Positions 26,912 to 54,877 of a DNA stretch of 58,029 nucleotides are shown piece after piece. The first letter of the stretch is position 1; the number at the start of each line of letters is the position of its first letter. The stretch is from Synechococcales cyanobacterium bin2.concoct.b11b12b14.033 (GTDB lineage Bacteria > Cyanobacteriota > Vampirovibrionia > Caenarcaniphilales > Caenarcanaceae). The position numbers and the translations under genes are program-made. The stretch covers positions 1-58,029 of the forward strand of contig JAAFJH010000003.1 of NCBI GenBank assembly GCA_013298875.1. Direction: 5' to 3'. The notes under the pieces were generated by a model. The model saw only the letters and a list, made by a program, of their open reading frames with translations. It had not been told where the DNA came from and ran no database searches.

Positions 26912-27946
26912 ATGACAACTGGTGTTTTTATAGGGCGATTTCAGCCTCTTCATAATGGTCATTTAGAGATTATTGAGGATATAATAAGACAGAATGATAA
27001 AGTTCTTTTATTTGTAGGAAGTGCGAATCGGGGCAGGACATATAAGAACCCCTTTACATTTGAAGAAAGAAAATCTTTTATTGAGCAGACTTTAAAATCC
27101 CCAAAAGTCCAAATATTACCTTTAAATGATTTTCCGTTAGATGCAGACTGGTTATCTAATTTGAAAAGTGAGATAAAAGAAAATCAATTACCCGGAATAG
27201 TTAAATTTTATGGATCTTCCAAAGATTCTTCCTCTTATTATTTGGATTATTTAGGTTATAAAAAATCAGAAAAATACATTAGTGTTCTAGATGGGAAAAT
27301 TGTAGAAGATAATGTTTTTGTAGAGAAAAAAGTAATAAATAAAATAGATGCAGAGTTTATAAGAAGTACATTATTTGAAAGGGAGATAGTATTAACTAGT
27401 TTGATCCCCACACCAGTAATACAATTTTTAAATAAATTCAGGATAGAGTCCATTTATTGGGATCTTAAAGAGGAATATCGATATATTCAAAAATACAAAG
27501 AATCATGGAGTCAGTCACCCTATCCACCTATATTCGTAACAGTGGATGCTGTTGTTCGGTATAAGGATTCAATACTATTTATTAAAAGAAAAGATCATCC
27601 TGGGAAAGATTTGTATGCCCTTCCTGGGGGATTTGTAGCTGTAAATGAAACATTAGAGACTGCTGTATTGAGAGAGCTAAAGGAAGAGACTAGAATGATA
27701 CTAAAAACAACCGATATACAAGACATGAAATTATTCGATAATCCAGATCGTTCTACTAGAGGAAGAGTTATAACGATGGCTTATTATTTTGATGTCACTA
27801 ATAAACCTAGTAGAATCTTAGATTTAAAAGCAGGAGATGATGCGGCTAGTTATAAATGGATTGAGTTTGAAGATATAGAAAAAGCCCCCCTCAAATACCA
27901 TGATGATCATCTTGATATTATTAAATCTTTTGTGTCCTTAAAATAA
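26912..27946 (+). CDS. nadM: bifunctional NMN adenylyltransferase / Nudix ADP-ribose pyrophosphatase
   Basis: IGRFQPLHNGH, GSAN..KNPFT.EER; Nudix box GGFVAVNETLETAVLRELKEET; PDRSTRGR, AGDDA. Confidence 0.92.
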   Translation: MTTGVFIGRFQPLHNGHLEIIEDIIRQNDKVLLFVGSANRGRTYKNPFTFEERKSFIEQTLKSPKVQILPLNDFPLDADWLSNLKSEIKENQLPGIVKFYGSSKDSSSYYLDYLGYKKSEKYISVLDGKIVEDNVFVEKKVINKIDAEFIRSTLFEREIVLTSLIPTPVIQFLNKFRIESIYWDLKEEYRYIQKYKESWSQSPYPPIFVTVDAVVRYKDSILFIKRKDHPGKDLYALPGGFVAVNETLETAVLRELKEETRMILKTTDIQDMKLFDNPDRSTRGRVITMAYYFDVTNKPSRILDLKAGDDAASYKWIEFEDIEKAPLKYHDDHLDIIKSFVSLK

Positions 27947-28133: not shown

Positions 28134-29531
28134 ATGTCCAATTTAATACTAGATACAGATAGCTATAAAGCTTCTCACTTCCTTCAATATCCTCCAGGAA
28201 CTGATTATATGTTTAGTTATATAGAGAGTAGAGGAGGTCAGTATGAAAAAACTGTTTTCTTTGGGCTTCAATATTTATTAAAAGAATATTTATCAAAACC
28301 TATAACCCAAGATAATGTAGATGAGGCGGCAAGTTTTTTTAAATTACATGGATTGCCATTCCCTAGAGAACAATGGGAATACATAGTAAATACTTATTCG
28401 GGATATTTACCTATAAAAATCAAAGCAGTAGCGGAAGGTTCAATAATACCAACTGGGAATATTTTAGTTTCAGTAGAATCCTTAGACCCTAAGGTTTTCT
28501 GGGTTGTAGGATGGCTTGAGACCTTATTATTAAGGATTTGGTATCCCGTTACAGTAGCGACAAGATCTTATCATGTAAGAGAACTAATTAATAAATATCT
28601 TATTGAGACAGCAGATAACCCAGAAGAAGAGATATGGTTTAAATTACATGATTTTGGTTCTAGGGGGGTATCTAGTGCAGAATCGGCAGGTATCGGGGGT
28701 ATGTCTCATTTAGTAAATTTCAAAGGCTCCGACACTGTAAAGGGTGTATATTTTGCGAATAAATATTATAACCATGATATGTCTGCTGTCTCAATCCCCT
28801 CAGCGGAACATTCGGGTATAATTTCTTGGGGTAGAGATAATGAAGTAGATGCGTACAAGAATATGCTTACTAAGTTTGCTAAAAAAGATTCATTTGTAGC
28901 TATTGTGTCTGATAGTTACGATATTTATAATGCGATTTCTAATTTATGGGGAGTTGAGTTAAGACAGCAAATAATAGATTCTGGGGCATTAGTTGTTCTA
29001 AGACCCGATAGTGGAGTCCCTCATGAAGTGGTATTAAGATGTCTTGATCTTTTGTCAAGTAGATTCGGGTATACAATGAATAGCAAAGGTTATAAGGTTT
29101 TTAATAATGTAAGGATCATGCAAGGAGATGGCATAAATGAACAAAGTATACAGAAAATCATAGATACGATTACTAGGTACAAATATAGTATTACTAATGT
29201 AGCTTTTGGGATGGGAGGAGCTTTACTGCAACAAGTAGATCGAGATACTCAGAAATTTGCTATGAAATGTAGTTGTGTTTGTGTAGAAGGGAAATATCGA
29301 GATGTATATAAGGATCCTATTACAGATTTGGGTAAAACTAGTAAAAAGGGTCAATTAGGATTATTTATGGGAGGATCAAATCCATTAATGAATGAGGGTA
29401 AATCTTATGTTACGAGAAAAATAGAATCCGCACAAGATGAAAAAGAAAATTTACTCAAAACTGTATTTAGTGCGGGTGAGATAATTCAAGAATATACATT
29501 AGAAGAAATTCGACACAGATTGCATTCTTGA
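28134..29531 (+). CDS. nadV: nicotinamide phosphoribosyltransferase (NAMPT)
   Basis: LDTDSYKASH, LHDFGSRG, SAEHS, VSDSYD, LRPDSG, QGDGI, FGMGGALLQ..RDT..FAMK. Confidence 0.93.
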   Translation: MSNLILDTDSYKASHFLQYPPGTDYMFSYIESRGGQYEKTVFFGLQYLLKEYLSKPITQDNVDEAASFFKLHGLPFPREQWEYIVNTYSGYLPIKIKAVAEGSIIPTGNILVSVESLDPKVFWVVGWLETLLLRIWYPVTVATRSYHVRELINKYLIETADNPEEEIWFKLHDFGSRGVSSAESAGIGGMSHLVNFKGSDTVKGVYFANKYYNHDMSAVSIPSAEHSGIISWGRDNEVDAYKNMLTKFAKKDSFVAIVSDSYDIYNAISNLWGVELRQQIIDSGALVVLRPDSGVPHEVVLRCLDLLSSRFGYTMNSKGYKVFNNVRIMQGDGINEQSIQKIIDTITRYKYSITNVAFGMGGALLQQVDRDTQKFAMKCSCVCVEGKYRDVYKDPITDLGKTSKKGQLGLFMGGSNPLMNEGKSYVTRKIESAQDEKENLLKTVFSAGEIIQEYTLEEIRHRLHS

Positions 29532-30952: not shown

Positions 30953-32446
30953 TTAAAGCTGTACGGACTCAATCTCCTTAATTAGAGCTTGGGGATTTTT
31001 CTCTAATTCACCTATTAGATTTAATAATTTATCCGACCATCCAGATATGTATGTGATTCTGTCTTTTAATTGAACTGTCCCGTAGCAAGACATGTCAATA
31101 CTAAAAATTTTAGGTTCTGACTTACTTCTTTCCTGATAATTATTAAGAGCTTTCTGAACTCTATCAATACCATCCATACCTTGCATATCAGATAAAATTA
31201 TTATTCTCTCATAAGTTTCAGATGCTTTATCAAAAATACTAGAAAATTGCGTACCTTTAGGTTCAGTTTTGCTAATTATTTGGTCTACAAGACTTAAAAG
31301 AGTATCTTTTCTATTCAGGATGAGATATTCCGCATCATCAGAAAAAATCATTAAATGAGAGTCTATATTTTTCTTATAAAAAGAAGCTGCAAATATGGAT
31401 GCAATTTCAATCATATTCATATCAGATTTAATAGAAGGAGAATCAGTCATTGATCCTGAAGCATCCACCACAATTAAAGATCTACCTTCTAGTTGGGGTG
31501 TATTTTCTAACGCTATATCGGCTGCATTACTTATACTTTCCAGTACTTTACTCGCACTAGGAAGATTCATTTTTTTAATTTCTTTATATGCAGCATAGAA
31601 TCTATAAGGTAACAATTTACTATTCTTTATAGAATCTGGATTCTCTAATAAATCTAGAGCCTTTTTCAATACTGAGTCAGAAACTACAGACAATATATTT
31701 CTTAAATTTCTCAGTAACACCATATATCCTAATTTATTATTAATAATTAAATCTTCCCAGATTTGTTGTTTCTTTTCGGTCTTTTCTTCTTCGGTTGTGG
31801 TATTTTGTAATCCTTTAGATAAATTAGTTTCCCAAGTACCTTCTACCAATAATTCATTTTTAATAAGTTTCTCTAATGAATTAGAGTTATTAGCTTGCGG
31901 TATAGGTTTAATGATATTCACTATATCGACTAATTTCCATTGCTTCTCTCTCATCTGATACTTAGCTAATTGATAATCATTAAATTTATTAAATGCTTTT
32001 CTGAATCCCTTTTTTAGCCCATTAGGGATCGATACTTCTATTTTATCTTTAGATTGAATTGAATCATAGAATGCCAGAATTTCAGACATATCATCAGGTC
32101 TTTGGATAATTTGTTCAAAGAAATATTTCTTTTTTATAGTCCATTCACTATCTGGTTTGAACTCTAAACGAGCCAAATATCCAGCCAGTACATGAGAAGT
32201 TGATCTCATATTCGCATTAATTCTGGCATAAAGTGCTAGTTTAGCTGTAAAGATAGGATCATTTATCTTAAGGATCAGATCCCTTAAGTTGTTAAGGGTA
32301 TCTCTTTTACATCTATAAAAACGGTCTTCAATAAATGAAGTCAACACACTAGCGATTAACTCCATCTTTGAAGTTAATTTAAAGGCATCTACATTTTCAC
32401 AATTAAGAGCTAAAGATTGATTAATAGAGGTATTGAATTTAGACAT
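30953..32446 (-). CDS. rsr: Ro60/TROVE-vWA RNA-binding protein
   Basis: ALYAR..NMRS, QRPDDMSE, YQLAKY, TWE, LGYMVLLRNLRNI, LLPYRFYAAY; MIDAS VDASGSM..GT..ILSDMQ. Confidence 0.9.
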   Translation of the reverse strand: MSKFNTSINQSLALNCENVDAFKLTSKMELIASVLTSFIEDRFYRCKRDTLNNLRDLILKINDPIFTAKLALYARINANMRSTSHVLAGYLARLEFKPDSEWTIKKKYFFEQIIQRPDDMSEILAFYDSIQSKDKIEVSIPNGLKKGFRKAFNKFNDYQLAKYQMREKQWKLVDIVNIIKPIPQANNSNSLEKLIKNELLVEGTWETNLSKGLQNTTTEEEKTEKKQQIWEDLIINNKLGYMVLLRNLRNILSVVSDSVLKKALDLLENPDSIKNSKLLPYRFYAAYKEIKKMNLPSASKVLESISNAADIALENTPQLEGRSLIVVDASGSMTDSPSIKSDMNMIEIASIFAASFYKKNIDSHLMIFSDDAEYLILNRKDTLLSLVDQIISKTEPKGTQFSSIFDKASETYERIIILSDMQGMDGIDRVQKALNNYQERSKSEPKIFSIDMSCYGTVQLKDRITYISGWSDKLLNLIGELEKNPQALIKEIESVQL

Positions 32447-33475: not shown

Positions 33476-35572
33476 ATGCCTACCATATACGAATGGTCTG
33501 ATAATCAATTTGGACAAAAAGATGTAATTATTCAAACTAGCGAAAGAACCAAATCATTTCGTAAAAGGGATAGAATGCAACCTCTCGAAGATGCGGAGGA
33601 TGAGGAAATTATCAGCTGGGCAAAAAAATTGACTTACGAGTCATACATATCAAAAAGAGAGTGGCATTCTCTTTGGCTTTCTAATCTTTATGACTATTAC
33701 TCAAAACCAACATTTAAAAAAGAACTTGAGGTAGGAAAAGAACCCAATTTAGGTTCACGGGATACTGACATATTTATTCCTCCTCTTATCCGAAGATTAA
33801 CAGACCTCACAAGTTCGTGGCTCACAAGACAAATATTTAGAGCCGAACCTTTCATACAATTCACAAACTATAAATTAGAAGACAAAGAGTTAACAAATAT
33901 ACAAAGATTATATGAGAGAAAACTCCAAGGAGATTGTCAGTCCTATAAAGCTAGAGATAAAGCCAAAGCCGTATTTACTGATTTCACCCTTTACGGTAAT
34001 GCTATCCTGAAAGCCGATTTTCATCAAGAGAGAGTCTTGACCAAAAGAGCAGATTTAAATCTTATAGTCAATAATGCCCTTAGTGATTTGGTTGATTCTG
34101 ATGATCCTTTAGCTACTCAGTTTGATGGGCTTACAGATGATTTAAATGCTAAAATGTCAGCACCCAAACCATATTTTGAAGTAGTGGATCAGTTTGCTAT
34201 GTTTAATCCTGTATTTCCGGGGAATTTCATTATAGATCCTTACTGTAGGTATGATGATTGGAAGAATGCTGCATATATGGGGGATGTATCGTACGTGAAT
34301 GAAGAAGAATTATGGGATATGTTTGGTTCTATCCCTAAATTTAAGAAAAATTTCCATGGAGCTATGGGAGGTTATGTGGCCTCCAGACTACCATTTGGTA
34401 TCGGGATGGATCCTTTTGTGTCTTCCCAAACAATATTCGCAAACAATTATGGTAGAAACCCTACTGGGGAATTTGGCAGGAAAATACACTCAATTTTATA
34501 TCTAGAGACACCCAAGACACAAACCTGTATTGTGGATGAGTCTTTAGTTGTGTATCACAAAATAAGAGATCCTAAAATTAAAAAAATGGGTCCTTGGTCT
34601 TTTGAGGTATTAAGATTCCCCACAACATCGGGAAGTTTATGGAGTGTAGGGTACGGTTATGTGTTGAGACAGCTTCAAAAAGAACAAACATATATTGCGA
34701 GTAAGAGACTTCAATATTTAGAGAAAATGCACAAGCCTTTCATTGAGGTTATTGATGATGCGGTTGATGAATCTAAAATAAAAGAACTTAAAGACTGTAT
34801 CATGATCCGTGCAATGCAGCCCGGTAGTGTGAACTTTAGGATGCCACCTGCGGGGGCGGAGGAAATGTACCTTAATTCCGAAGCCAGAAATGTACAGAGA
34901 GCTAGGGAATTTGTAGGGATTCCCCCAATATTAGATGGAAGTTCAGAAAAAACCCATCTTGGTGCCGTAAATCAGAGAATTGATGCCGCTCAAGTACAGT
35001 TTGATGTGTTGTTAGATGTTTGTAGAGATTCATTTAAATCTTTATATCAAAAAATACATACTCTCAATATGGCGTATCTTGAAGGCTCATTGCCTATTTA
35101 TGGTGCGGCTGGTATTACTGAGAAAAACTCGCTCGCTAATAGTTTAAGTGATGATCAAATAGGTAAATTAAGATCTTCCGATCTAGTACTAGAGCTTAAT
35201 GCAGGTATTTCAGTTGGGGAAGAGAAACTTAAATCTTTCGCTCAATTACTCAATACATCTCCGATTTCCTCTAGTCTACAATCTCTACCTCCACAATATC
35301 AAATTATTTTATTAGGTCAATTACTAGATATGGGAGGTATTCCTGAATTTAAGAGAATATTTGATTTAGGTGCCCAAGAAATACTTAATCAAATGGCGGA
35401 ACAAAAAGCAGCAGCGGGAGTTCCGGAGGGGAGCCCTCCAGAAGAAGGAATGCCTCCTGGTAGCCCTACCGGAGTACCTCCTGAAATGACTCTAAAAGCT
35501 ACCCCGCCACCACAAGCTGGAGTACCTGGCCCATCTGGAAATAACATTCCACTGCAAATGATGGGGCTTTAA
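33476..35572 (+). CDS. portal protein
   Basis: 698 aa; DFTLYGNAILK, PGNFIIDP, SLWSVGYG..LRQLQ, REFVGIP..LDG, Pro-rich tail typical of P22/SU10-like portals; lies ahead of scaffold and capsid. Confidence 0.75.
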   Translation: MPTIYEWSDNQFGQKDVIIQTSERTKSFRKRDRMQPLEDAEDEEIISWAKKLTYESYISKREWHSLWLSNLYDYYSKPTFKKELEVGKEPNLGSRDTDIFIPPLIRRLTDLTSSWLTRQIFRAEPFIQFTNYKLEDKELTNIQRLYERKLQGDCQSYKARDKAKAVFTDFTLYGNAILKADFHQERVLTKRADLNLIVNNALSDLVDSDDPLATQFDGLTDDLNAKMSAPKPYFEVVDQFAMFNPVFPGNFIIDPYCRYDDWKNAAYMGDVSYVNEEELWDMFGSIPKFKKNFHGAMGGYVASRLPFGIGMDPFVSSQTIFANNYGRNPTGEFGRKIHSILYLETPKTQTCIVDESLVVYHKIRDPKIKKMGPWSFEVLRFPTTSGSLWSVGYGYVLRQLQKEQTYIASKRLQYLEKMHKPFIEVIDDAVDESKIKELKDCIMIRAMQPGSVNFRMPPAGAEEMYLNSEARNVQRAREFVGIPPILDGSSEKTHLGAVNQRIDAAQVQFDVLLDVCRDSFKSLYQKIHTLNMAYLEGSLPIYGAAGITEKNSLANSLSDDQIGKLRSSDLVLELNAGISVGEEKLKSFAQLLNTSPISSSLQSLPPQYQIILLGQLLDMGGIPEFKRIFDLGAQEILNQMAEQKAAAGVPEGSPPEEGMPPGSPTGVPPEMTLKATPPPQAGVPGPSGNNIPLQMMGL

Positions 35573-36725: not shown

Positions 36726-37694
36726 CTAATGGGCTTTTGTTAATTTCTCTTGGTGTTGGGTTAGTCTTTCTATTAAATCTTCAATGTCTTGTTTTCTAGC
36801 TATTTGTTCTATCCAATTATCCGGGATATTGTCATAACCATAAAGAAGTCCAGCGAGTCCCCCTGTAACCGCCCCTGTTGTATCTGTATCATCACCTAAA
36901 TTTACGGCTTTTAAAGTAGCTTCTTTATAGTTGTCTGTTGTTAGCAAACACCAAATACTCGCCTCCAGTGTATGTAATACGTATCCTGTACTAAAGATTT
37001 CATTTTCGGGTAATTTATAAATATTTTGATTTAACAGTCTATCAAATACTAAAATTTCATTTAATTCTATTGAAAGCAAACTTAAATGGTATTTTATTTC
37101 ATATTTTAAATTTTCATAAATTTCAAATTTGTCTAGTCCTAAAATTATAAGCCTTGCAAATTCAAGGTAATAAAAACAAGCAATTACAGAACGAACATGT
37201 CCATGTGTAATTGATGAAACTAGTTTTGTGATTTCGTATCTCTCAGAAATTGGTTTATCTTTAATGTGGAAAATTAGAGGTAAAATTCTCATTAATGAAC
37301 CATTGCCATTTGAAGATATATCAAAGCTACCTGCTAGATTGGGTTTTTCTCCTCTAAAAAGTTTTGTTATTGCTTTTTTTGTTATAAGTCCAATATCAAA
37401 AATATTACCTGTTGCTGTCCAATAGTTTTTAAAATACCAGTTTACAAAATTATTCCCAATAATATTTAAATCAAATTCCTGTGTTAATGCCTCTGCAAGA
37501 CAAAAGGTGAGAGAACTGTCGTCTGAAAAAGTGCCTGGGGTTAAATTATATGTACCATAACCTGTCATAGCAATTACAGGATTTTGTTTAATTGTATTTC
37601 TACTTTCAAATTCAACTGGAACCCCTAGTGCATCCCCAACTGCAACGCCAAATAACGCTGATTTAATATGTTTTTTCAAGGTTGTCATTGTCAA
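36726..37694 (-). CDS. ADP-ribosylglycohydrolase (DraG/ARH family)
   Basis: GVAVGDALGVPVEF, SDDSSL, GNGSLMR, ITHGH, AVNLGDDTDTTGAVTGGLAG. Confidence 0.92.
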   Translation of the reverse strand: MTMTTLKKHIKSALFGVAVGDALGVPVEFESRNTIKQNPVIAMTGYGTYNLTPGTFSDDSSLTFCLAEALTQEFDLNIIGNNFVNWYFKNYWTATGNIFDIGLITKKAITKLFRGEKPNLAGSFDISSNGNGSLMRILPLIFHIKDKPISERYEITKLVSSITHGHVRSVIACFYYLEFARLIILGLDKFEIYENLKYEIKYHLSLLSIELNEILVFDRLLNQNIYKLPENEIFSTGYVLHTLEASIWCLLTTDNYKEATLKAVNLGDDTDTTGAVTGGLAGLLYGYDNIPDNWIEQIARKQDIEDLIERLTQHQEKLTKAH

Positions 37695-40504: not shown

Positions 40505-41765
40505 GTTATTATTTTGGTGATTTAGGGTAAGATAAATAACAGATCAAAAAAACAAATGCAGATAAAAGAAATCCCCTTCAATATAGCGAAAGAGTTTTTA
40601 ACCGAATATCATTATTTACATTCAATCCCGAAAGGTACATCTTATTGTATTGGGGCTTTTCCTAGTTTGGACTCTAATGAATTAGAGGGAGTTATTTGTT
40701 TCGGGAATCCTATTGCTAAGAATTTATGGAAAGGTATATTTAATGTACAGGTGAGTGTTAAGGAACTTTCCAGATTAGCGATCAAAGAAGGTTCGGGCTT
40801 TATTGCTTCTCAGTTGATCAGTAAAGCTATTAAATTGGTAGATTGTGATGCGATTATATCTTATGCGGATACAAATCAAGGGCATGTTGGGATTGTATAT
40901 CAAGCTACTAATTGGCTGTATTTAGGTATTACTCAAAAGAGAACCGAATATTATTTGAAGTCTCGTCCTGACCTTCATAGTAGATCTTTATTTGGAGACA
41001 AGACAGTGCAGGAACTCCAGAAGATTTATGGTGAAGATCTAGATAAGAGGGAAACTCCCTATAAATTGAAATATCTTTATTTAAAAACCAAAAAAGCAAA
41101 GAAAAACCTTAAAGCAACCACAGAATCTTATGTTAAGACTATAGATAGTATATTAAGGAAATATATTTATTGTTGGGTAAATAAATTGAATGATAAGAAA
41201 TATGTAGGGAAAACAAGTAGACCTTTAAGTCATCGATATACTGCATTCAACCCCATAAATGGTTCTAATGGGAGGTATTTTATGAGGGCTATTTGTAAGT
41301 ACGGAAAAGAAAACTTTCAATGTTCAATATTAGAAGAGTTGCCTGGCAATATAACTTCTGAAGAGTTGAGCCAAAAAGAGCTTTATTGGATCAATAAGCT
41401 AAATACATTAAGTCCTGCGGGTTATAATGTTAGTATTCCGGATTCCGAGAATATAGGTAGTGATACTAGACCGGACATTAAAGGTATTGCTAGACCTAAA
41501 TATGTGAGGGAGAAAATTAAACTAAATTGGGAATCAAATACTAGAAAGTTTATTAGAGGTAAACTAGTTAGTCCAGAAGGAAAGTTGATTGAATTTAAGA
41601 ATTTAGCTAAATTCTTAAATGAAACAGAAGGTTTAGGTCATAAAGATGAAAGAAATATAACTGCTTTATTGAAGGGGGAAAGATATTATGTGAAGGGATG
41701 GCGAAAATATACTTCTAGTATTGATTTAATTCCCTTTTCAGAATGGGAAAAACCTAAACCAGTAT

Positions 41766-41885
41766 TTGACATACACTCTGCTCTAAAGAGCAAAGGAACT
41801 TAACGCTTCATTGAAATTTGCTAGTAAACTAGACTTACAATTTCTCTGCGTTCGTTTATAGTCTCCCAATGCCCTGTGGCGACTT
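41766..41885 (-). ncRNA. omegaRNA (reRNA) scaffold of the tnpB element
   Basis: overlaps the tnpB 3' end and right end; conserved in the orphan copy at 54741..54857. Confidence 0.7.
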
Positions 41886-42957
41886 TCTCTATATTTTTAG
41901 CGGCGTTTTCATCTCGATCATGAACAGTTCCACATCTTAAACATTCAACTGAACGAACTTTTAAATCAAGTTTTCCCCATTTATACCCGCAACTAGAACA
42001 AACTTGACTTGTAGGTTCCCAACGATTAATTACCCGACACTCTCTGCCAAACTTCTCAGACTTGCTTTCACACAAAGTTCTAAACTCTCTCCAGCCTTGC
42101 AAGCTTATTACTCGTGCCAATTTATGGTTTTTTACCATCCCCGACACGTTTAAATCTTCCAAAACAATTAGTTGATTTTCCTTTACTATTTTGGTTGACA
42201 GCTTGTGCAGAAAGTCTTTGCGTATATTTGCAATTTGATTATGCTTTTTAGCAAGTTTTAGTTTGGCTTTCAGTCTTCGGTTTGAGCCTTTTGATTTCCT
42301 TGCTAAAGCTTTTTGCAACTTCCTAACTTTTTTGTCAAGTTTTGTGTAGTTTGGGCTTTCAGCCGTCTCTCCATTGCTCAAAAATGCAAAAGTTTTTATT
42401 CCCAAATCAATACCGATACTTTGGTTTTTAGCCTCAATACTGACTGGTTCAACCTCTACGACAAAACTTAAAAAATAGCAATCAGTACAATCTTTAATTA
42501 CCGTTACCGAACTTGGCTCAGATGGCATTTCTCTTGACCAAATCGGGGTTAAATTACCAACTTTAGCCAAATAGACTTCATTATCTTTCACTGAAAAAGC
42601 ATTACTAGCGAACTCAGCCGACTGGTAGTTAGTCTTTTTCTTGAATTTTGGATATTTTATTTTTTTGCCTTTTCTTTTCCCTTTACAAGAATCAAAAAAG
42701 TTTTTAAATGCCCCTTCCAGCTTTCGGAGAGACTGTTGTAATGGAACAGATGAAACATTATTTAGCCATTCTCTTTCTTTTGTCTTTTTTGATTCAGTGA
42801 GCAAAGCCGACAATTCTTTAGAGTTTGGTTTCTTTTCAGCTTGCTTGCAAATAGCCAAAGCATCATTATACACAATCCTCACACAACCAAACAATTGAGC
42901 TAAACTCTCTTTCTGTTGGTCTGTTGGGTAAAATCTATATTGATACCTAGCTTTCAT
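41821..42957 (-). CDS. tnpB: RNA-guided endonuclease TnpB
   Basis: YRFYPT..LFGCVR; RuvC GIDLG, VLEDL, DRDENAAKNI; CSSC/CLRC zinc ribbon; catalytic residues intact. Confidence 0.95.
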   Translation of the reverse strand: MKARYQYRFYPTDQQKESLAQLFGCVRIVYNDALAICKQAEKKPNSKELSALLTESKKTKEREWLNNVSSVPLQQSLRKLEGAFKNFFDSCKGKRKGKKIKYPKFKKKTNYQSAEFASNAFSVKDNEVYLAKVGNLTPIWSREMPSEPSSVTVIKDCTDCYFLSFVVEVEPVSIEAKNQSIGIDLGIKTFAFLSNGETAESPNYTKLDKKVRKLQKALARKSKGSNRRLKAKLKLAKKHNQIANIRKDFLHKLSTKIVKENQLIVLEDLNVSGMVKNHKLARVISLQGWREFRTLCESKSEKFGRECRVINRWEPTSQVCSSCGYKWGKLDLKVRSVECLRCGTVHDRDENAAKNIEKVATGHWETINERREIVSLVY

Positions 42958-43250: not shown

Positions 43251-43448
43251 ATGATAATTAATGGTAAATATCAAATAATAGCAATTGACCGATATAGATG
43301 GAATAATAAATGTTCGGATGATGAAAAGCCTGAATATAATCTAGAGGTTGATCTATATCATATAAAAACTGGCGAAACAAGCAAAGTAAGGGGAGATGAT
43401 TTTAACCGGATAATAAGGGATTTAGTTATTGATGATGAGATGTATTAG
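43251..43448 (+). CDS. hypothetical protein
   Basis: ORF track; overlaps both neighbours. Confidence 0.45.
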   Translation: MIINGKYQIIAIDRYRWNNKCSDDEKPEYNLEVDLYHIKTGETSKVRGDDFNRIIRDLVIDDEMY

Positions 43449-44940
43449 AGATAAAGTGGATAGCGATTTAAAATACAGTCATCAAAAGCAAATAAGGGTA
43501 CAAAAAGAAATACAAGATATACAGAATAATATTTCTTATCCTATTTGTAGAATTGAAGAAAGTATAATAACACCTATTCCTCTTAAGGAAGCTAAACCAT
43601 TTATTTTAGAGTATGAATATTTAGGTACAATGTCTACTAGAATAATTCAATGTTTTGGTCTTTATTATCATGATATTTTATCGGGAGCTATCGTGTTCTC
43701 TTTACCCCCTTCAAAAGGGGTTACTGAGTCAATATTAGGCAAAGAGCATAAAGATAAGGTTTGTGTACTTTCTCGAGGTGCTTGTGCGTATTGGACACAC
43801 CTCCATTCAGGTTCTAAACTGATCTCTTATGGTACAAGATGGATGTCTCAAAACACTAAATATAAATGTTTTATAGCATATGGAGATCCAACCGCTAATG
43901 AGATCGGGACTTTATATCAAGCTTGTAACTGGATCTATACAGGACAGACAGAATCTAAAACTGAATATTATCTAAATAATAAATGGGTTTCGGGTTATGA
44001 GTTTAGGTTACAAAGAAAAAGAGAAACTCTCCCAAACAATATACTGACTAGACCTGGCTCTAAAAAACATAGATATGTTCTGATAAAAGGGAAAGATAAA
44101 AGAGAGACAAAACAACTAAAAAAACAGTTAAGACTCAATAGTTTCCCTTATCTTAAGAGACACAATATAATCTCTAAAACTACAGCTTTCAATATTAGTC
44201 TTCAAGATGTTAAGAAAAGCAATATTATTTACAAGATAACCAATAACGTGAATGATAAAGTCTACATAGGACAGACAATTCAAAATATTACTGAAAGATA
44301 TCCTGGATTAGATTTAACTAGTTCGAGAACTACAGGGTCTATACTTCAACATGCAGCCTTAAAGTACGGTAACGATAAATTTTCGGTAGAGGTTATCTAT
44401 CAATCTCCTTTTATAAATAGTCAAGAAATATTAGATGATCTGAACTCTAAAGAAAAATATTTTATTGATTTATTTCAGTCTAATAAAACGGGCTACAATA
44501 TAAGAGAGGGAGGTAAAAATCATTTTAGAACACCTGCTGAAAAGAAAAAACTATCAAACAGCCTAGTCGCTAAGAAATCTTATTTGAGGATATTTTGTGA
44601 TCCTGAAGGTAATAAAATAGAAGTATTAAATCTATCCGGTTTCTGTAAAGAGAATAAATTAGACTTTTCAGCTATGCAGAAAGTCAGTATAGGAAAAAAA
44701 TATTCTTATAAAGGATGGAGAAAATGGGAAGTAGGTCTGACAAAATATACCACACTTGAGAGTAATGAGAGAAATATAAAGGGTTCCGTCAAGGAATATA
44801 ATTTAATCAAAGAAGGAACCCCTATATATATAAAAAACCTTAAAAAATTCAGTCAGGAAAATAATTTAAATTATTCAAGCATGAGAGCTTTAGTGCAAAA
44901 AAGAACAAAAACATATAAAGGATATTTGATTAATATTTAG
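43429..44940 (+). CDS. Mom-like GNAT + GIY-YIG endonuclease fusion
   Basis: EYEYLGTM, LSRGAC, AYGDPTANEIGTLYQACNWIYTG; IIYKITNNVNDKVYIGQT..KEKYFI..GYN; YKGW repeats. Confidence 0.75.
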   Translation: MMMRCIRDKVDSDLKYSHQKQIRVQKEIQDIQNNISYPICRIEESIITPIPLKEAKPFILEYEYLGTMSTRIIQCFGLYYHDILSGAIVFSLPPSKGVTESILGKEHKDKVCVLSRGACAYWTHLHSGSKLISYGTRWMSQNTKYKCFIAYGDPTANEIGTLYQACNWIYTGQTESKTEYYLNNKWVSGYEFRLQRKRETLPNNILTRPGSKKHRYVLIKGKDKRETKQLKKQLRLNSFPYLKRHNIISKTTAFNISLQDVKKSNIIYKITNNVNDKVYIGQTIQNITERYPGLDLTSSRTTGSILQHAALKYGNDKFSVEVIYQSPFINSQEILDDLNSKEKYFIDLFQSNKTGYNIREGGKNHFRTPAEKKKLSNSLVAKKSYLRIFCDPEGNKIEVLNLSGFCKENKLDFSAMQKVSIGKKYSYKGWRKWEVGLTKYTTLESNERNIKGSVKEYNLIKEGTPIYIKNLKKFSQENNLNYSSMRALVQKRTKTYKGYLINI

Positions 44941-46308: not shown

Positions 46309-46527
46309 TTAAAGAACTTCTCTTCCCATAGCCTTCAAGCACTGAACTAAAAAGATAGCAGAGAAAGTACCTCTGTTAATTTTATTATTGATGCTATGAG
46401 GTTTCTCATGCACACCAATTTCCGCTAACAAATTAGCCAAATCTTCAAAACTTAAGTTACGCCTTGCCATCTCGGCTTTCAATAAGCCCCTGACGTAAAA
46501 CGCCCATTTGTCTTTTTCTTCTTCCAT
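46309..46527 (-). CDS. DUF6471-like HTH regulator
   Basis: GLLKAEMARR.L...LA..L..IGV.E....I.NKINRGTFSA.F.VQCL; divergent from the transposase. Confidence 0.7.
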   Translation of the reverse strand: MEEEKDKWAFYVRGLLKAEMARRNLSFEDLANLLAEIGVHEKPHSINNKINRGTFSAIFLVQCLKAMGREVL

Positions 46528-48731: not shown

Positions 48732-49688
48732 TTAATTGCTTCCATCTAATTTCTTCATTTTCTTTATAGATTCTTCATTTCTTTGCCATGCTTGATAAAT
48801 TAATTCTAGCTTTGATTCATATGAGGCGATTTTGTCCATACATTCATATTCTACACTTTCTCTCATTCGATGCTTTATTAAATCTATTGTTTGTGAAGGA
48901 TAATTAAAATTCTTTTTTCCTTTCACCGTAATTTTGTCTACTTTCCCTCTTTTTTCGTTTCGATTAAAAACATCTTTTAAAAATTTTATTATAGAGGGTT
49001 TATCCAGATACTCAGAATTTAAAGAATTATCTAAATTTGCCTTTTTGGATTCTCGCATTTTTTTCGGACTTCTTAGCATTTTAGCCCCTATTTCAATAAC
49101 TGGACTTCTTAATCTCTCTGAAAGAATCAGTAATTCTTTTTCCGACTTTTCATTTTCAGGATCTAGAACACTAAGATCATTTAACCCAGAAAGCTGAACG
49201 CAAAAACATTCTACAAGTTCAAATGAATCAATCTGTAGAAAAAAATCTTCTTTAACTTTTATCCCTAATTGAAATTGTCCATTTATAGACTTCTCGGAAA
49301 AAAAATTCTCAACAATTTTATGGCTTATTGAGCCGTTCTCTTCTAATAAAATCGAATGAAAAGTTGGGCAATAAAGAAATACGGCTGTAGTAGCTATCTG
49401 CTTGTCATCGGGAAGGGAAGAAGCTTCATAACCTAGTTTGCTTTTGCTGCCAGTAATTAGCGAATCATCCAATAATCTTAAAAATTCCCCCTCCCATAAT
49501 GAGGTTTTTTCATTAAATTTGATAGTTTCTAGTCTAATAATTTTATCATCTGATATAGGGAGGTTCCTCCTTTCAGATAATCCGTTTATACTGCTAAGTT
49601 CTTTAAGTAGCTCTCCTAAAGTATATTTTGAACCTTCTAGAGAGTAAACCTCAAAAAAATTTACTCCTAATTTTCTTTTTTTTCTCAT
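48732..49688 (-). CDS. DUF6731/DUF4747-like protein
   Basis: V.FFEV start, IRLE....W.G.F.RL, IDLIKHRM end; family recalled, not searched. Confidence 0.5.
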   Translation of the reverse strand: MRKKRKLGVNFFEVYSLEGSKYTLGELLKELSSINGLSERRNLPISDDKIIRLETIKFNEKTSLWEGEFLRLLDDSLITGSKSKLGYEASSLPDDKQIATTAVFLYCPTFHSILLEENGSISHKIVENFFSEKSINGQFQLGIKVKEDFFLQIDSFELVECFCVQLSGLNDLSVLDPENEKSEKELLILSERLRSPVIEIGAKMLRSPKKMRESKKANLDNSLNSEYLDKPSIIKFLKDVFNRNEKRGKVDKITVKGKKNFNYPSQTIDLIKHRMRESVEYECMDKIASYESKLELIYQAWQRNEESIKKMKKLDGSN

Positions 49689-49757: not shown

Positions 49758-50009
49758 CTACCTAAGCATCACCTTTTTAGGGTCATCAATTTTGATTTCC
49801 CTGCATCCAATAACATATAGGCATTCAAACAAAAAGGTAGCTGAAAATTTAGCTCTATTAATTTTGTTTATCAAGTTCTTTGGATCTTCAATTATTCCTA
49901 TTTCTTTAAGCAAAGATGCCAACTTACTATAACTAACTTTCCTACGTACAAGATCAGCCTTGAGCAATCCTTTTATGTATTCTTCCCATAATTTATCTGG
50001 TGCATCCAT
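49758..50009 (-). CDS. second DUF6471-like HTH regulator
   Basis: paralogue of 46309..46527 (GLLKA..RR..NKINR.KFSA.F). Confidence 0.7.
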   Translation of the reverse strand: MDAPDKLWEEYIKGLLKADLVRRKVSYSKLASLLKEIGIIEDPKNLINKINRAKFSATFLFECLYVIGCREIKIDDPKKVMLR

Positions 50010-50137
50010 TTGAAACCACCCTGAACTATCTTGAATTGATTTTATTGCTTGGGAACTTTTAACACTGCTAAAACATCAAAATTAATGTTGGTGCATCGTA
50101 TTTGATACCAGCTTTACTAATTTAATGGGGATTTTCT

Positions 50138-50311
50138 ATGAAAAAATTACTTTTTGCTACTTTGCTTCTTATACCTTTAGTAAATTCTTTCTCTGCTATG
50201 GCAATTGAAATTGAAACTATATGCTGTAAAACTACTTCAAGTGGTCAGAAATTTTGTAGGCTTATAGTAAGTGAATATGGATTTTGCCCAATGGGATGGC
50301 AGAGGGAGTAA
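50138..50311 (+). CDS. small secreted 4-Cys peptide (57 aa, not in track)
   Basis: MKKLLFATLLLIPLVNSFSAMA signal + IEIETICCKTTSSGQKFCRLIVSEYGFCPMGWQRE. Confidence 0.6.
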   Translation: MKKLLFATLLLIPLVNSFSAMAIEIETICCKTTSSGQKFCRLIVSEYGFCPMGWQRE

Positions 50312-50314
50312 CAT

Positions 50315-50452
50315 ATGAAACAAATACTTATATCTTTAGCATTCAGCTTAGTTTTATTACTGAATCAAATAAGTTATGCTAGTTGTGAATGCACGGGCTG
50401 CGATACCTGTACAAGGGGTGATTGCTCCTGTAGTTCTTGTGAATGTGATTAA
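50315..50452 (+). CDS. secreted metallothionein-like peptide copy 1 (45 aa)
   Basis: signal peptide + SCECTGCDTCTRGDCSCSSCECD; GGGAG RBS; paralogue at 53049. Confidence 0.7.
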   Translation: MKQILISLAFSLVLLLNQISYASCECTGCDTCTRGDCSCSSCECD

Positions 50453-50510
50453 TGACTGTAACTAATAGACAGTAATTCAGAGGACATCATTAGACTAACT
50501 GGTGATGTTC
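50381..50510 (+). repeat. about 130-bp direct repeat copy 1, including terminator
   Basis: matches 53112..53241; ends in GGACATCA..TGATGTTC plus T-run. Confidence 0.85.
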
Positions 50511-50562
50511 TTTTTCTTTTTGTTTGTTATTTTTAGTTTGTCTCTAAGTTATCAATGGTTAT

Positions 50563-50703
50563 ATGTCTAAAACGCCTAAAACTCCTAAAAATAAACCAGA
50601 AAAATATAAAAGAGCTGATAATGGACAGTTTACTACAAAAGAATTTGCAGAAAAAAATCCTGAAATTGTTTATAAGCTAGGAGCTAAAAAGAAGAAGTTA
50701 TAG
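50563..50703 (+). CDS. small basic protein (46 aa, not in track)
   Basis: KRADNGQFTTKEFAEKNP resembles small R.A..G.F.T...A..NP proteins found in mobile cargo. Confidence 0.5.
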   Translation: MSKTPKTPKNKPEKYKRADNGQFTTKEFAEKNPEIVYKLGAKKKKL

Positions 50704-50872
50704 ATTCTGTTAAGTACTCGTCAGATAAAAAATTATGGGTAAAAGTCAATTGATTTTCATTCATATCTTCTGTGATAACAAATATTCTTTTAACATTGTT
50801 CTGTTTTAATTTTGATAAATATTCTCTAAATAACCAGTCTTGGGCAGACCAATCCTCTAGTTCTTTCGGCAT
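50684..50872 (-). CDS. hypothetical protein
   Basis: ORF track. Confidence 0.35.
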   Translation of the reverse strand: MPKELEDWSAQDWLFREYLSKLKQNNVKRIFVITEDMNENQLTFTHNFLSDEYLTESITSSF

Positions 50873-51093
50873 CTTTTAATAAAATTTAGGGGCTTTATAA
50901 ACAATTTTAAAGTTCGTAGAAGCGGTTGTTTATGGAGGGACTCTAGAAATCATGGATAGCTTAAAAAAACATGTCGATGTAGTTCAAGATAATTTATTAA
51001 TCTGTGAATTAACTTTAGACAAACATTCTCCAATACTAACAGTAGGAGAAGTATCTGATTTACTAACTCAAAGAGGGTATTTTAAACAAGTCC

Positions 51094-51294
51094 CTAATTA
51101 GATTTCAAATACTGAGATCTAATTAATTTAAATTCTTCAATATCTTTCTTCGTTGTTCCAGGAGGAAATATGCAAACTATAGAACCTGAAACTAAAATTT
51201 GAACTTTACTTTCTTTTTTGTTTTCTTCTGACATATTTTTTTTGGCTTTATTAAATAATTTTAAAGGTGGAATATCAAGTAGTACCTTTAGCAA
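51094..51294 (-). CDS. hypothetical protein
   Basis: ORF track; abuts 51295..51615. Confidence 0.4.
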   Translation of the reverse strand: MLKVLLDIPPLKLFNKAKKNMSEENKKESKVQILVSGSIVCIFPPGTTKKDIEEFKLIRSQYLKSN

Positions 51295-51615
51295 CTACTT
51301 TTGCAAACTTATCCCCTCTAATTCCTGTAAGGTTGGAATTGACAGATCAGTAGTTTTTACAAATATATACTTTCCCGAAACTCTATTTCTTGTCTCTTCA
51401 TCCATTTCACCATCTACACGGACATAGGGTTTTGACATTTTTTCCAAGAATCTTTTTCTTGTGTCTTCTATTGATTTTTGGGATCCTTCTTGTTGATTAC
51501 GAATAGGCTCATTTACTTTAATTAGATTATTATCATCGTCAATAACCTCAATGAAAGGCTTTGACATTTTTTCTAAATAATAAGCTCTTTTTTCTTCTAA
51601 GTTGTTTTTATTCAT
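51295..51615 (-). CDS. small protein with two copies of a portal-derived segment
   Basis: KRAYYLEKMSKPFIEVIDD and RKRFLEKMSKPYVRVDG versus portal KRLQYLEKMHKPFIEVIDD. Confidence 0.7.
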   Translation of the reverse strand: MNKNNLEEKRAYYLEKMSKPFIEVIDDDNNLIKVNEPIRNQQEGSQKSIEDTRKRFLEKMSKPYVRVDGEMDEETRNRVSGKYIFVKTTDLSIPTLQELEGISLQK

Positions 51616-51821
51616 GTACTCTGGATATTAAGTATTTAATTTTAAGAACCCTCAATTAAACTTTATAAAAGAACACACATATAATTGAGAATACTTGAAA
51701 CAAAAATGAAAGACATCCGTCTAAATTAATATACTCCTTTACCTTCCTGTATCGACTCTCTCAATCAATAGTTGGACGATATAGGGGGGGGGTAAACCTA
51801 AAGTTTACTTGGAGATCTTCT

Positions 51822-51983
51822 GTGAAGAAATTACTTTTTGCTTTCTTGTTTATATTTACTATTATTCCCACCATTCCCACCATTCAGAGTTCTGCTCAAT
51901 GTGATAATCCTTGGGATACTGCTAGTGATGGTTCTCGCTGTGGTGGTCGTGCTTCCTCTCAAAGACCTGGCGGTAGACGTTAA
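51822..51983 (+). CDS. small secreted peptide (53 aa, not in track)
   Basis: GGAG RBS, GTG start; signal + CDNPWDTASDGSRCGGRASSQRPGGRR. Confidence 0.65.
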   Translation: MKKLLFAFLFIFTIIPTIPTIQSSAQCDNPWDTASDGSRCGGRASSQRPGGRR

Positions 51984-52549: not shown

Positions 52550-53023
52550 ATGAAAAAACTATTACTTATTTGCCTTTTGGTAATCGGCTCTTTCAATGAG
52601 GTAAAATCTGAACCTTATCCTCAAGACTATTATGGCGGTGCTTATTATCCTCAATATCCTAACTATCAATCCCCTAGAATAATGAACTCTTATGGTGGAA
52701 TGACAGCTCAGGACATATTGTCAGGTAATTATCAGTATCAACAGCCATATAGGAATCAGGGAGAAGGTTTCTGGTCTAAAACTGGGAGAGTTCTGAATGA
52801 TCCTGCCTTTGCGAACGCCTTATCAGCAAGTATGCAGAACTACTCAATGATGGAACAGGCACGAACTCAGGCATTATCTAACTCATTAAATACCGTTTTC
52901 CAAAACTCTTTTAACAGAACAAGAGTTCCTTCTTTTACGCCATATACACGACCACCGGAGCCTAGTTCTTACACAGTAACAAGATTTGGTGATGGCTTGA
53001 GAATAAAGGAAGACTACAAATAA
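52550..53023 (+). CDS. secreted Tyr/Gln/Pro-rich protein
   Basis: MKKLLLICLLVIGS signal peptide. Confidence 0.65.
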   Translation: MKKLLLICLLVIGSFNEVKSEPYPQDYYGGAYYPQYPNYQSPRIMNSYGGMTAQDILSGNYQYQQPYRNQGEGFWSKTGRVLNDPAFANALSASMQNYSMMEQARTQALSNSLNTVFQNSFNRTRVPSFTPYTRPPEPSSYTVTRFGDGLRIKEDYK

Positions 53024-53048: not shown

Positions 53049-53183
53049 GTGAAATCGATTATATGTTTAAGTTTTGGTTTAGTATTATGGCTAGGTCAAG
53101 CAAGTCATGCAAGTTGTGAATGCACAGGCTGCGATACCTGTACTTATGGTGATTGCTCCTGTAGTTCCTGCGAATGTGATTAA
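53049..53183 (+). CDS. secreted metallothionein-like peptide copy 2 (44 aa)
   Basis: AAAGGAG RBS, GTG start; signal + SCECTGCDTCTYGDCSCSSCECD. Confidence 0.7.
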   Translation: MKSIICLSFGLVLWLGQASHASCECTGCDTCTYGDCSCSSCECD

Positions 53184-54740: not shown

Positions 54741-54877
54741 AAGTCGCCATGGGGCATCGGGAGACTATAAACGAACGCAGAGAAATAGTCAGACTAGTTT
54801 ACTAGCAAATTTCAATGAAGCGTTAAAAATCTTTGCTCTTAGCAAAGGGTATGTCAATTTAGCATCTACACATAATT
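54741..54877 (+). ncRNA. stand-alone TnpB omegaRNA (scaffold 54741..54857 plus putative guide)
   Basis: about 12 substitutions and a 3-nt gap versus the reverse complement of 41766..41885; ends GTATGTCAA. Confidence 0.7.

Follow-up and report, generated by a model that had tools for sequence, protein, structure and literature searches.

Two copies of a predicted portal stem-clip segment in a small phage gene, with a tentative reading as a soluble clip surrogate

Our analysis covers the whole of contig JAAFJH010000003.1 (C69, one of 145 contigs in a 2.15-Mb metagenome assembly), a stretch of 58,029 bp with 33.5% GC that we call the window, and indicates that a small gene in it carries two copies of a segment of the phage's own portal gene. 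The window is a fragment of a phage genome without a terminal repeat. The small gene is an open reading frame (ORF) of 106 amino acids, referred to below as the mini-ORF and its predicted product as the mini-protein. Protein comparisons show a small protein family that derives from the predicted stem-end and clip unit of a portal, a unit that occurs here twice in tandem. We tentatively propose that the mini-protein is a soluble surrogate of the portal clip, which would compete for a partner that normally binds the clip. The features on which the argument turns are the following.

33476-35572, plus strand: portal gene, 698 amino acids, source of the copied segment
34685-34813, plus strand: copied segment, portal residues 404-446, predicted end of the first stem helix and clip core
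51295-51615, minus strand: mini-ORF, 106 amino acids, about 12.5 kDa, isoelectric point 5.6, TAG stop, two tandem modules
51508-51600, minus strand: module 1, residues 6-36, predicted helix end and first strand, a near-identical copy of portal residues 407-437
51534-51579, minus strand: DNA core patch within module 1, holding the 23-mer at 51539-51561
51352-51480, minus strand: module 2, residues 46-88, a diverged copy that aligns without gaps to portal residues 404-446 (predicted helix end, strand, helix, strand)

A preliminary description of this DNA had reported the mini-ORF and likened part of its product to portal residues at about 410-428; the ORF is indeed present with the sequence given there, and residues 9-27 of the mini-protein (KRAYYLEKMSKPFIEVIDD) are identical to portal residues 410-428 (KRLQYLEKMHKPFIEVIDD) at 16 of 19 positions. 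At the DNA level, positions 34715-34760 agree with the reverse complement of 51534-51579 at 41 of 46 bases, as had been claimed, and the exact 23-mer within this patch (34733-34755 on the plus strand, 51539-51561 on the minus strand) occurs nowhere else in the window, while two matches were obtained in 0 of 100 dinucleotide shuffles. The repeat extends to 88 nucleotides at 74% identity (34703-34790 and 51504-51591). A tblastn search within the window relates the mini-protein to the portal at E 5.8e-5, and when the whole assembly is searched the portal is its only other match (E 1.6e-4). Module 1 shares 23 of 45 positions with the portal in BLASTP, and against a profile of the portal segment it scores an hhalign probability of 94.7% (E 6e-8, 31 columns), a score reached by none of 100 column shuffles.

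The second, diverged copy that had been described is also borne out. Module 2 aligns to the portal-segment profile over 43 ungapped columns with a probability of 67% (E 5e-5), again with 0 of 100 shuffles reaching the score, and we regard this copy as apparently real though weaker than the first. When the phage's own portal is left out of the profile, the probabilities are 93% for module 1 and 45-53% for module 2. Module 2 is followed, up to residue 99 (position 51319), by a conserved tail, IPTLQE. One candidate third copy, the assembly's only other DNA match, was set aside as chance: with E 0.037, it falls within a membrane transporter of the host on contig C54.

The large gene had been called a portal, and we accept this identity on the grounds of local structure, although sequence libraries say very little. 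It matches PHROG 332 (E 1.4e-9) and PHROG 1216 (E 2.5e-5), in both cases over its N-terminal third only, and has no match in Pfam, NCBIfam, PDB sequences (profile search, 0 matches) or GenBank phages; hhalign of its profile against T7 gp8 gave no alignment (probability 0.2%). An AlphaFold model built from 10 sequences is poor (pLDDT 41.8). A Foldseek search of this model against the PDB returned 35 chains at E <= 0.001, and among the matches listed all are phage portal, neck or tail assemblies, with N4, DEV, Moo19, VP1 and Pa223 leading and Pan3, PaP3, GP4, KHP30 and SU10 also present. Since their E values run from 1e-8 to 1e-4 at TM-scores of only 0.13-0.16, these matches concern local structure and not the global fold, and what we accept is the portal identity rather than the three-dimensional coordinates of the model. 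The position of the gene fits as well. It adjoins a charged, scaffold-like ORF of 302 amino acids, which directly follows it, and further on, past inserted genes, lies an ORF of 458 amino acids with a weak match to SU10_MCP (E 5e-4, below the cut-off). The portal and this capsid-like ORF are both found in the related contig G002:C66 (38.9 kb), whose portal is 41-44% identical and which shares with the window the portal, the capsid gene, one other gene and TnpB. The gene thus resembles podophage portals (N4, DEV, VP1, Pa223, PaP3, SU10, T7 gp8) by local structure and by PHROG 332 and 1216, and our best explanation of the source phage is a podophage, not cultivated, with a portal similar in local structure to the N4 type.

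Where in the portal does the copied segment lie? In the accessible text of PMC12847820 a portal is laid out as two long stem helices joined by a clip made of strands and one helix, and in that of PMC13483052 the clip of T7 gp8 is given as residues 299-330 of 536. The AlphaFold2 secondary structure of our portal, with H for helix and E for strand, reads H393-418, E422-425, H432-436, E442-445, H462-480, H498-533. Because this order of helix, strand, helix, strand and helix between long helices follows the canonical stem-clip-stem layout, we infer, with low confidence, that residues 404-446 comprise the end of the first stem helix and the core of the clip. The location at the transition from stem helix to clip that the preliminary description had proposed is therefore supported by the predicted secondary structure and held back by the low confidence of the portal model. 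The segment is among the best-conserved parts of the 10 aligned portals. The AlphaFold2 model of the mini-protein has a pLDDT of 56.4 overall and about 70 in module 2, and its low-confidence secondary structure is H4-17, E22-25 and E31-34 in module 1 and H46-59, E64-66, H73-79 and E84-88 in module 2. The element order of module 2 (helix, strand, helix, strand) mirrors that of the portal segment, both models being of low confidence. A prediction of the complex between portal residues 380-545 and the mini-protein scored 0.00; run without controls, it is evidence neither way.

Moreover, the mini-protein has relatives outside this genome. Reading 1.84 billion cluster representatives gave five matches at E <= 0.001, which are the ORF itself, two spurious tandem-repeat proteins and two true homologues. 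The first homologue, P0012, has 53 amino acids, comes from a 2.2-kb metagenomic contig and is 66% identical to mini-protein residues 4-41 (38 amino acids; module 1). The second, P0014, has 165 amino acids, comes from a 2.1-kb metagenomic contig and is 46% identical over 56 amino acids of module 2, in a match that includes the tail KYIF-KT....IPTLQE, for which the portal has no counterpart. On its own, P0012 aligns to the portal-segment profile with a probability of 80%, or 69% when the phage's own portal and its 90%-identical relative are left out, and in a tblastn search of the window the portal comes second (E 2.7e-6), after the mini-ORF. Some residues (A, Y, S, DN) are common to the mini-protein and P0012 and differ from those of all portals, so that a small-gene lineage of portal origin predates the split between the two. 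That the module stands alone in P0012 and is fused to another N-terminus in P0014 fits a self-contained interaction unit. Outside this family the mini-protein has no significant match in Pfam (best E 0.018) or PHROGs (best E 0.081), both below the cut-offs, and PADLOC and NCBIfam have no match for the mini-protein, P0012 or P0014.

Other collections added little. Nothing useful was found in GenBank phages with the portal, the mini-protein and P0014, in IMG/VR with these three and P0012, in JGI metagenome contigs with the portal and P0012, or in GTDB genome contigs with the portal, and a protein Atlas search gave no usable match. The portal profile matched only the phage's own genome and G002 in 401 genomes of the class, and the same two among 61 relatives; searching again for homologues from the portal alignment brought up no proteins beyond the same 9. 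In IMG/VR, 0 stretches fitted degenerate DNA patterns of the two module motifs, and the one stretch found in genome contigs by a third degenerate pattern, on a Kaistella chromosome, is not an ORF and was rejected as chance.

How could a piece of the portal be of use to a phage once detached from the ring? The clip is the docking site of terminase and of tail parts. We picture the mini-protein as small and acidic, with two diverged modules in tandem that both descend from the stem-helix end and clip segment, and of which module 1 would keep the helix end and first clip strand almost unchanged and module 2 would cover the whole helix-strand-helix-strand clip core. Such a surrogate would not assemble into a ring, and it would tie up some protein whose usual docking place is the clip of the assembled portal ring. 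We think its likeliest target would be a host immune sensor, similar to SpbK, that needs many side-by-side clips in order to cluster and fire, so that a single-copy decoy might bind the sensor without activating it. The packaging or tail-attachment machinery would be the second candidate.

The closest known case is that of SpbK and YonE, from Bacillus subtilis ICEBs1 and phage SPbeta respectively. According to the accessible text of PMC12847820 and PMC11984713, SpbK's N-terminal domains dock onto the YonE dodecamer's clip domains, and the NADase is switched on through clustering. There, as proposed here, the portal ring's clip domains are the docking site that a defence protein reads; an escape mutation lies in the clip helix (PMC12847820; PMC11984713), and the segment copied in our phage is the predicted stem-helix end and clip core. 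The cases differ in that the whole dodecamer is the trigger of SpbK and the available text describes no free clip-like protein, whereas here we have a free-standing protein of two modules. Nip of phage Phi3T, which inhibits SpbK, is another small accessory protein of a phage, and the defence it neutralises is likewise portal-triggered (PMC11984713); compared by description only, it differs in that it binds the TIR (NADase) domain, and nothing in the available text likens it to a portal. Proteins of satellites and phages that interfere with the packaging motor, as in PLE against ICP1 (10.1101/2024.04.22.590561), are also small accessory proteins aimed at phage packaging machinery, although none is reported as portal-derived in the accessible part of that source. 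Compared with the podophage portals themselves, the mini-protein has the stem-end and clip segment twice and lacks the wing, the crown and the second stem helix, so it cannot form a portal. A route by way of RelA/SpoT, as for T7 gp8, was considered and rejected, as removal of the clip enhanced binding there, according to the text available of PMC13483052.

We rank the soluble clip surrogate first because the clip is a sensed docking site in SpbK-YonE, because a monomeric copy might bind such a sensor and yet not cluster it, and because the phage carries a nicotinamide phosphoribosyltransferase (NAMPT) and NMNAT gene pair, described below. Even so ranked, it is a possibility for which we claim only limited confidence. 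The broader claim, that phages of this clade encode free-standing mini-clips which bind clustering-dependent sensors singly and so disarm portal-triggered abortive infection, we consider improbable.

Several findings weigh against the surrogate. Several near-invariant portal positions in the segment (A408, S409, L412, V430 and D431) are lost in module 1. A clip-like three-dimensional fold of the mini-protein is only a prediction, given the low-confidence models (41.8 for the portal, 56.4 for the mini-protein) and the lack of a significant PDB match: Foldseek of the uncertain mini-protein model against the PDB gave a best E of 0.32 with no portal among the matches, a failure which, with a model this uncertain, does not itself count against the clip idea. 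As to partners, no TIR_2 domain turned up in the 92.8%-complete assembly; a terminase was likewise not detected, either in the window or, with PF03237 and PF17289 as the sole families tried, in that assembly. A copy of the trigger could in principle activate a sensor instead of blocking it. For P0014 by itself the match to the portal profile is weak (E 0.031, with 3 of 100 shuffles reaching the score), though the alignment is co-linear. Finally, the family is tiny and patchy. In a word-indexed search of 5.8 billion clusters only the ORF itself was found at 58-186 amino acids; no orthologue was found beside a 90%-identical portal present on 8 contigs of up to 56 kb; and G002:C66, the only related contig read, holds neither a homologue of the mini-gene nor a fragment of its own portal (best E 5.6). 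The preliminary description had named lack of conservation as grounds for regarding the ORF as neutral debris, and this is answered in part, by the two homologues in other metagenomes, while no orthologue was found beside the 90%-identical portal or in G002:C66.

These findings on distribution bear directly on a serious rival, namely that a portal piece was copied by illegitimate or endonuclease-associated recombination and left an open frame by chance, without a selected function. In its favour, the ORF is an orphan at near length and was not found beside the 90%-identical portal or in G002:C66, and the genome is rich in mobile nucleases that promote events of this kind (an HNH homing endonuclease, two GIY-YIG fusions, two TnpB genes and a stray TnpB 3' end). 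Codon usage speaks on both sides. In frame, the mini-ORF has a codon log-likelihood of 0.33 per codon (0.32 without the portal-like patch), within the range of 0.19-0.65 spanned by 29 long genes, and its other five frames score from -0.33 to -1.08; this is not decisive, as the best of 22 nested spurious ORFs scores 0.475. In copy 1, 14 of 17 identical residues use the same codon against 9.9 expected from codon bias (P = 0.026), slightly above saturation and compatible with a fairly recent copy. The DNA identity is, however, largely explained by identical amino acids together with strong codon bias, so that the DNA match alone is no proof of recent copying, and copy 1 is either the younger of the two, or has been renewed through gene conversion, or is kept alike because selection acts on the same peptide. 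In copy 2, only 2 of 7 identical residues use the same codon against 3.95 expected; its codons are saturated, which makes this copy old, and yet the motif has been kept.

Other evidence also sits badly with debris. The two diverged tandem copies are both in frame, P0012 and P0014 occur in other samples, and the shared derived residues separate the small genes from all portals. In an all-against-all comparison of ORFs of at least 40 amino acids, moreover, the portal and mini-ORF pair was the only case of a structural-gene fragment in a small ORF. Homology is a stronger argument for a real gene than the codon score, and the mini-ORF is, on these comparisons, best explained as a real but rare accessory gene. 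Four runs of one study contain the stretch, with no RNA run listed among the holders, and among the 40 of 189 differences listed none falls inside the mini-ORF, a sample that speaks neither for nor against selection. We regard debris as doubtful, while it remains, with the next alternative, a rival to be taken seriously.

That alternative is a portal-derived protein that acts on its own portal, pairing like a neighbouring subunit, by way of the clip sheet and the packing of stem helices, and so delaying, capping or chaperoning ring assembly, or poisoning the portal of a competitor. The accessible text of PMC12847820 states that subunits touch one another through each of the four portal subdomains, the clip and the stem among them; the copied segment could for that reason compete at the subunit interface, and tandem modules could imitate two adjacent subunits. 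On the other hand, several near-invariant portal residues are absent from the modules, and a protein that poisons its own phage would require tight timing. We consider this unlikely, though still serious as a rival.

The preliminary description had favoured a decoy specific for Avs4, a STAND-type sensor of portals. Avs4 and Avs11 do sense portals, which are in this respect a conserved pattern read by immunity, as in our proposal (10.64898/2026.01.04.697583), and the phage has other genes that resemble counter-defences. However, the accessible text of the same source describes recognition of the fold by shape complementarity across extended interfaces and reports no decoy. Sensors that survey whole folds over wide surfaces would be unlikely to take as a ligand a fragment such as the modules represent, about 43 of the 698 portal residues, and an Avs4-specific decoy is correspondingly hard to credit. 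Furthermore, no portal-like protein appears among the known anti-Avs proteins in the available part of 10.1101/2025.06.06.658234, and the mini-protein is unmatched in Pfam, PHROG, PADLOC and NCBIfam. We rate this possibility as very low.

It had also been suggested that transcription of the plus strand across the mini-ORF would give an antisense RNA to the portal mRNA, and one could equally imagine that the shared stretch serves as an inverted repeat for recombination. The 41 of 46 complementary bases, on opposite strands at loci 16.7 kb apart, are all that speaks for such a role of the nucleic acid. The similarity is in frame in both genes and comes mostly from shared amino acids and codon bias, and copy 2 and P0012 conserve the protein and not the DNA. 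Among the contig joints listed for the four runs none links 347xx to 515xx on opposite strands, and an inversion between the two would destroy the portal gene. No plus-strand gene crosses 51295-51615, and a promoter and terminator scan of the window was at chance level, with 11 promoters found against 9.2 expected. A role of this kind seems to us highly improbable.

What would the soluble clip surrogate mean if it were real? Portals are conserved phage parts that are sensed by bacterial immunity and that phages find hard to change. If a phage copies the part that is sensed, or that serves for docking, into a small protein made early, it would have a new escape route, a decoy made from the trigger; and if the mini-clip reading is true, this counter-defence would be the first to arise from a copy of the part of a structural protein that immunity senses. 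The mini-protein could equally be a new kind of packaging regulator. Small accessory mimic proteins are a known kind, whereas the literature searched (supplementary files aside) describes no small portal-derived protein and no mimic built from the clip of a phage's own portal. The hypothesis is concrete, and it concerns a rare gene and a predicted protein; whatever the function turns out to be, the mini-ORF plainly exemplifies a new family of small genes that arose from a piece of an essential structural gene.

The surroundings of the mini-ORF have a character of their own. It sits within a block at 48-54 kb of small minus-strand genes, on the strand opposite to the structural genes, and between these small genes lie others, on the plus strand, that encode small and apparently secreted peptides. 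The features of this region, including those of a recurrent upstream motif, are as follows.

46309-46527 and 49758-50009, minus strand: DUF6471 paralogues, 49% identical
48732-49688, minus strand: DUF6731 protein, in the same small-gene block
50315-50452 and 53049-53183, plus strand: two paralogous genes for peptides of about 45 amino acids, 78% identical over 41 amino acids, with a DNA repeat of 188 nucleotides at 87%
50138-50311, 51822-51983 and 52550-53023, plus strand: three further small ORFs with similar hydrophobic N-termini
48131, 50902, 51256 and 53725, all minus strand: CTYTAAAATTR sites, about 25-35 nucleotides ahead of small-ORF starts
51637-51646, minus strand: a degenerate copy of the motif, one base shorter (CTTAAAATTA), 21 nucleotides before the ATG of the mini-ORF

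The motif CTYTAAAATTR has 4 exact occurrences in the window against 1.0 expected, a count reached in 0 of 100 shuffles, and in front of each of four small ORFs on the minus strand it is embedded in a common block of about 25 nucleotides. We read it as a probable promoter or leader element of the phage. The small-gene block, its opposite strand, the degenerate motif copy and the other probable counter-defence genes together make a context that fits a counter-defence role for the mini-protein, if expressed. Directly downstream, an ORF at 51094-51297 on the minus strand is in the same frame as the mini-ORF with a single TAG between them. Read-through of this TAG from the mini-ORF into the downstream ORF (51094-51294) was considered and rejected, the gap holding the common non-coding motif and 7 of the 29 long genes ending in TAG.

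The peptides of about 45 amino acids have, as judged by eye, an apparent signal-peptide N-terminus, followed by a tail of the form SCECTGCDTC..GDCSCSSCECD. It is unusual for a phage to encode cysteine-rich peptides of an exported type, the export being predicted by eye. Contigs from two runs join position 50046 to 51294 and omit 1,247 bp, at depths of 4.5 and 7.7 against 50 and 12 for the main form, and the omitted part ends exactly one base past the stop codon of the mini-ORF. The shorter side of this joint has only 30 letters, so it is possibly an artefact of the assembly graph; if real, it would represent a minor strain without the cassette beside the mini-ORF, in which the ORF itself is retained.

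The remaining recognisable genes of the window are the following.

3-25 kb: arrays of paralogous tail-fibre genes
26912-27946, plus strand: NMNAT/Nudix-type protein, matching cytidyltransferase PHROG 395 and Nudix
28134-29531, plus strand: NAMPT (PHROG 448, E 1e-147), adjoining the NMNAT/Nudix gene
30953-32446, minus strand: Ro60/TROVE protein with a vWA domain (Pfam E 1e-27)
36726-37694, minus strand: ADP-ribosylglycohydrolase (Pfam E 3e-69), an opposite-strand insertion between the scaffold-like and capsid genes
40556-41803 and 43429-44940, plus strand: two paralogous genes with a Mom-like DNA-modification domain, flanking a TnpB gene just past the capsid gene
41821-42957, minus strand: one of the two TnpB genes in the window
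elsewhere in the window: a nucleotidyltransferase gene
elsewhere in the window: a Toprim protein gene
elsewhere in the window: an HNH homing endonuclease

The NMNAT/Nudix and NAMPT pair looks like the counter-defence NARP2, a route by which phages rebuild nicotinamide adenine dinucleotide (NAD), as far as the accessible text of PMC13464706 and 10.1101/2024.02.11.579819 describes it. That the phage carries such a pair suggests that its hosts use NAD-depleting defences. The probable counter-defence genes that this phage carries elsewhere are NAMPT with NMNAT/Nudix, the ADP-ribosylglycohydrolase and the two Mom-like proteins. In the first of the Mom-like pair Pfam also recognises a GIY-YIG domain, and PHROG homing-endonuclease families match the two of them. 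No Y-RNA-like partner for the Ro60/TROVE gene was found in an Rfam scan of the window at gathering thresholds, and Rfam and tRNA scans of the window found none at all.

The TnpB gene at 41821-42957 has left a trace elsewhere in the window. An inverted pair of 100 nucleotides at 90% identity joins 41786-41885, which holds the last codons of this gene and the DNA immediately after it, with 54741-54840, a stray copy in an intergenic gap with no TnpB alongside, which may be a solo transposon end or a guide-RNA scaffold. In the four runs, contigs over the TnpB gene are as much as 10-40 times deeper than those over the remaining phage, which indicates that the element is abundant in the community.

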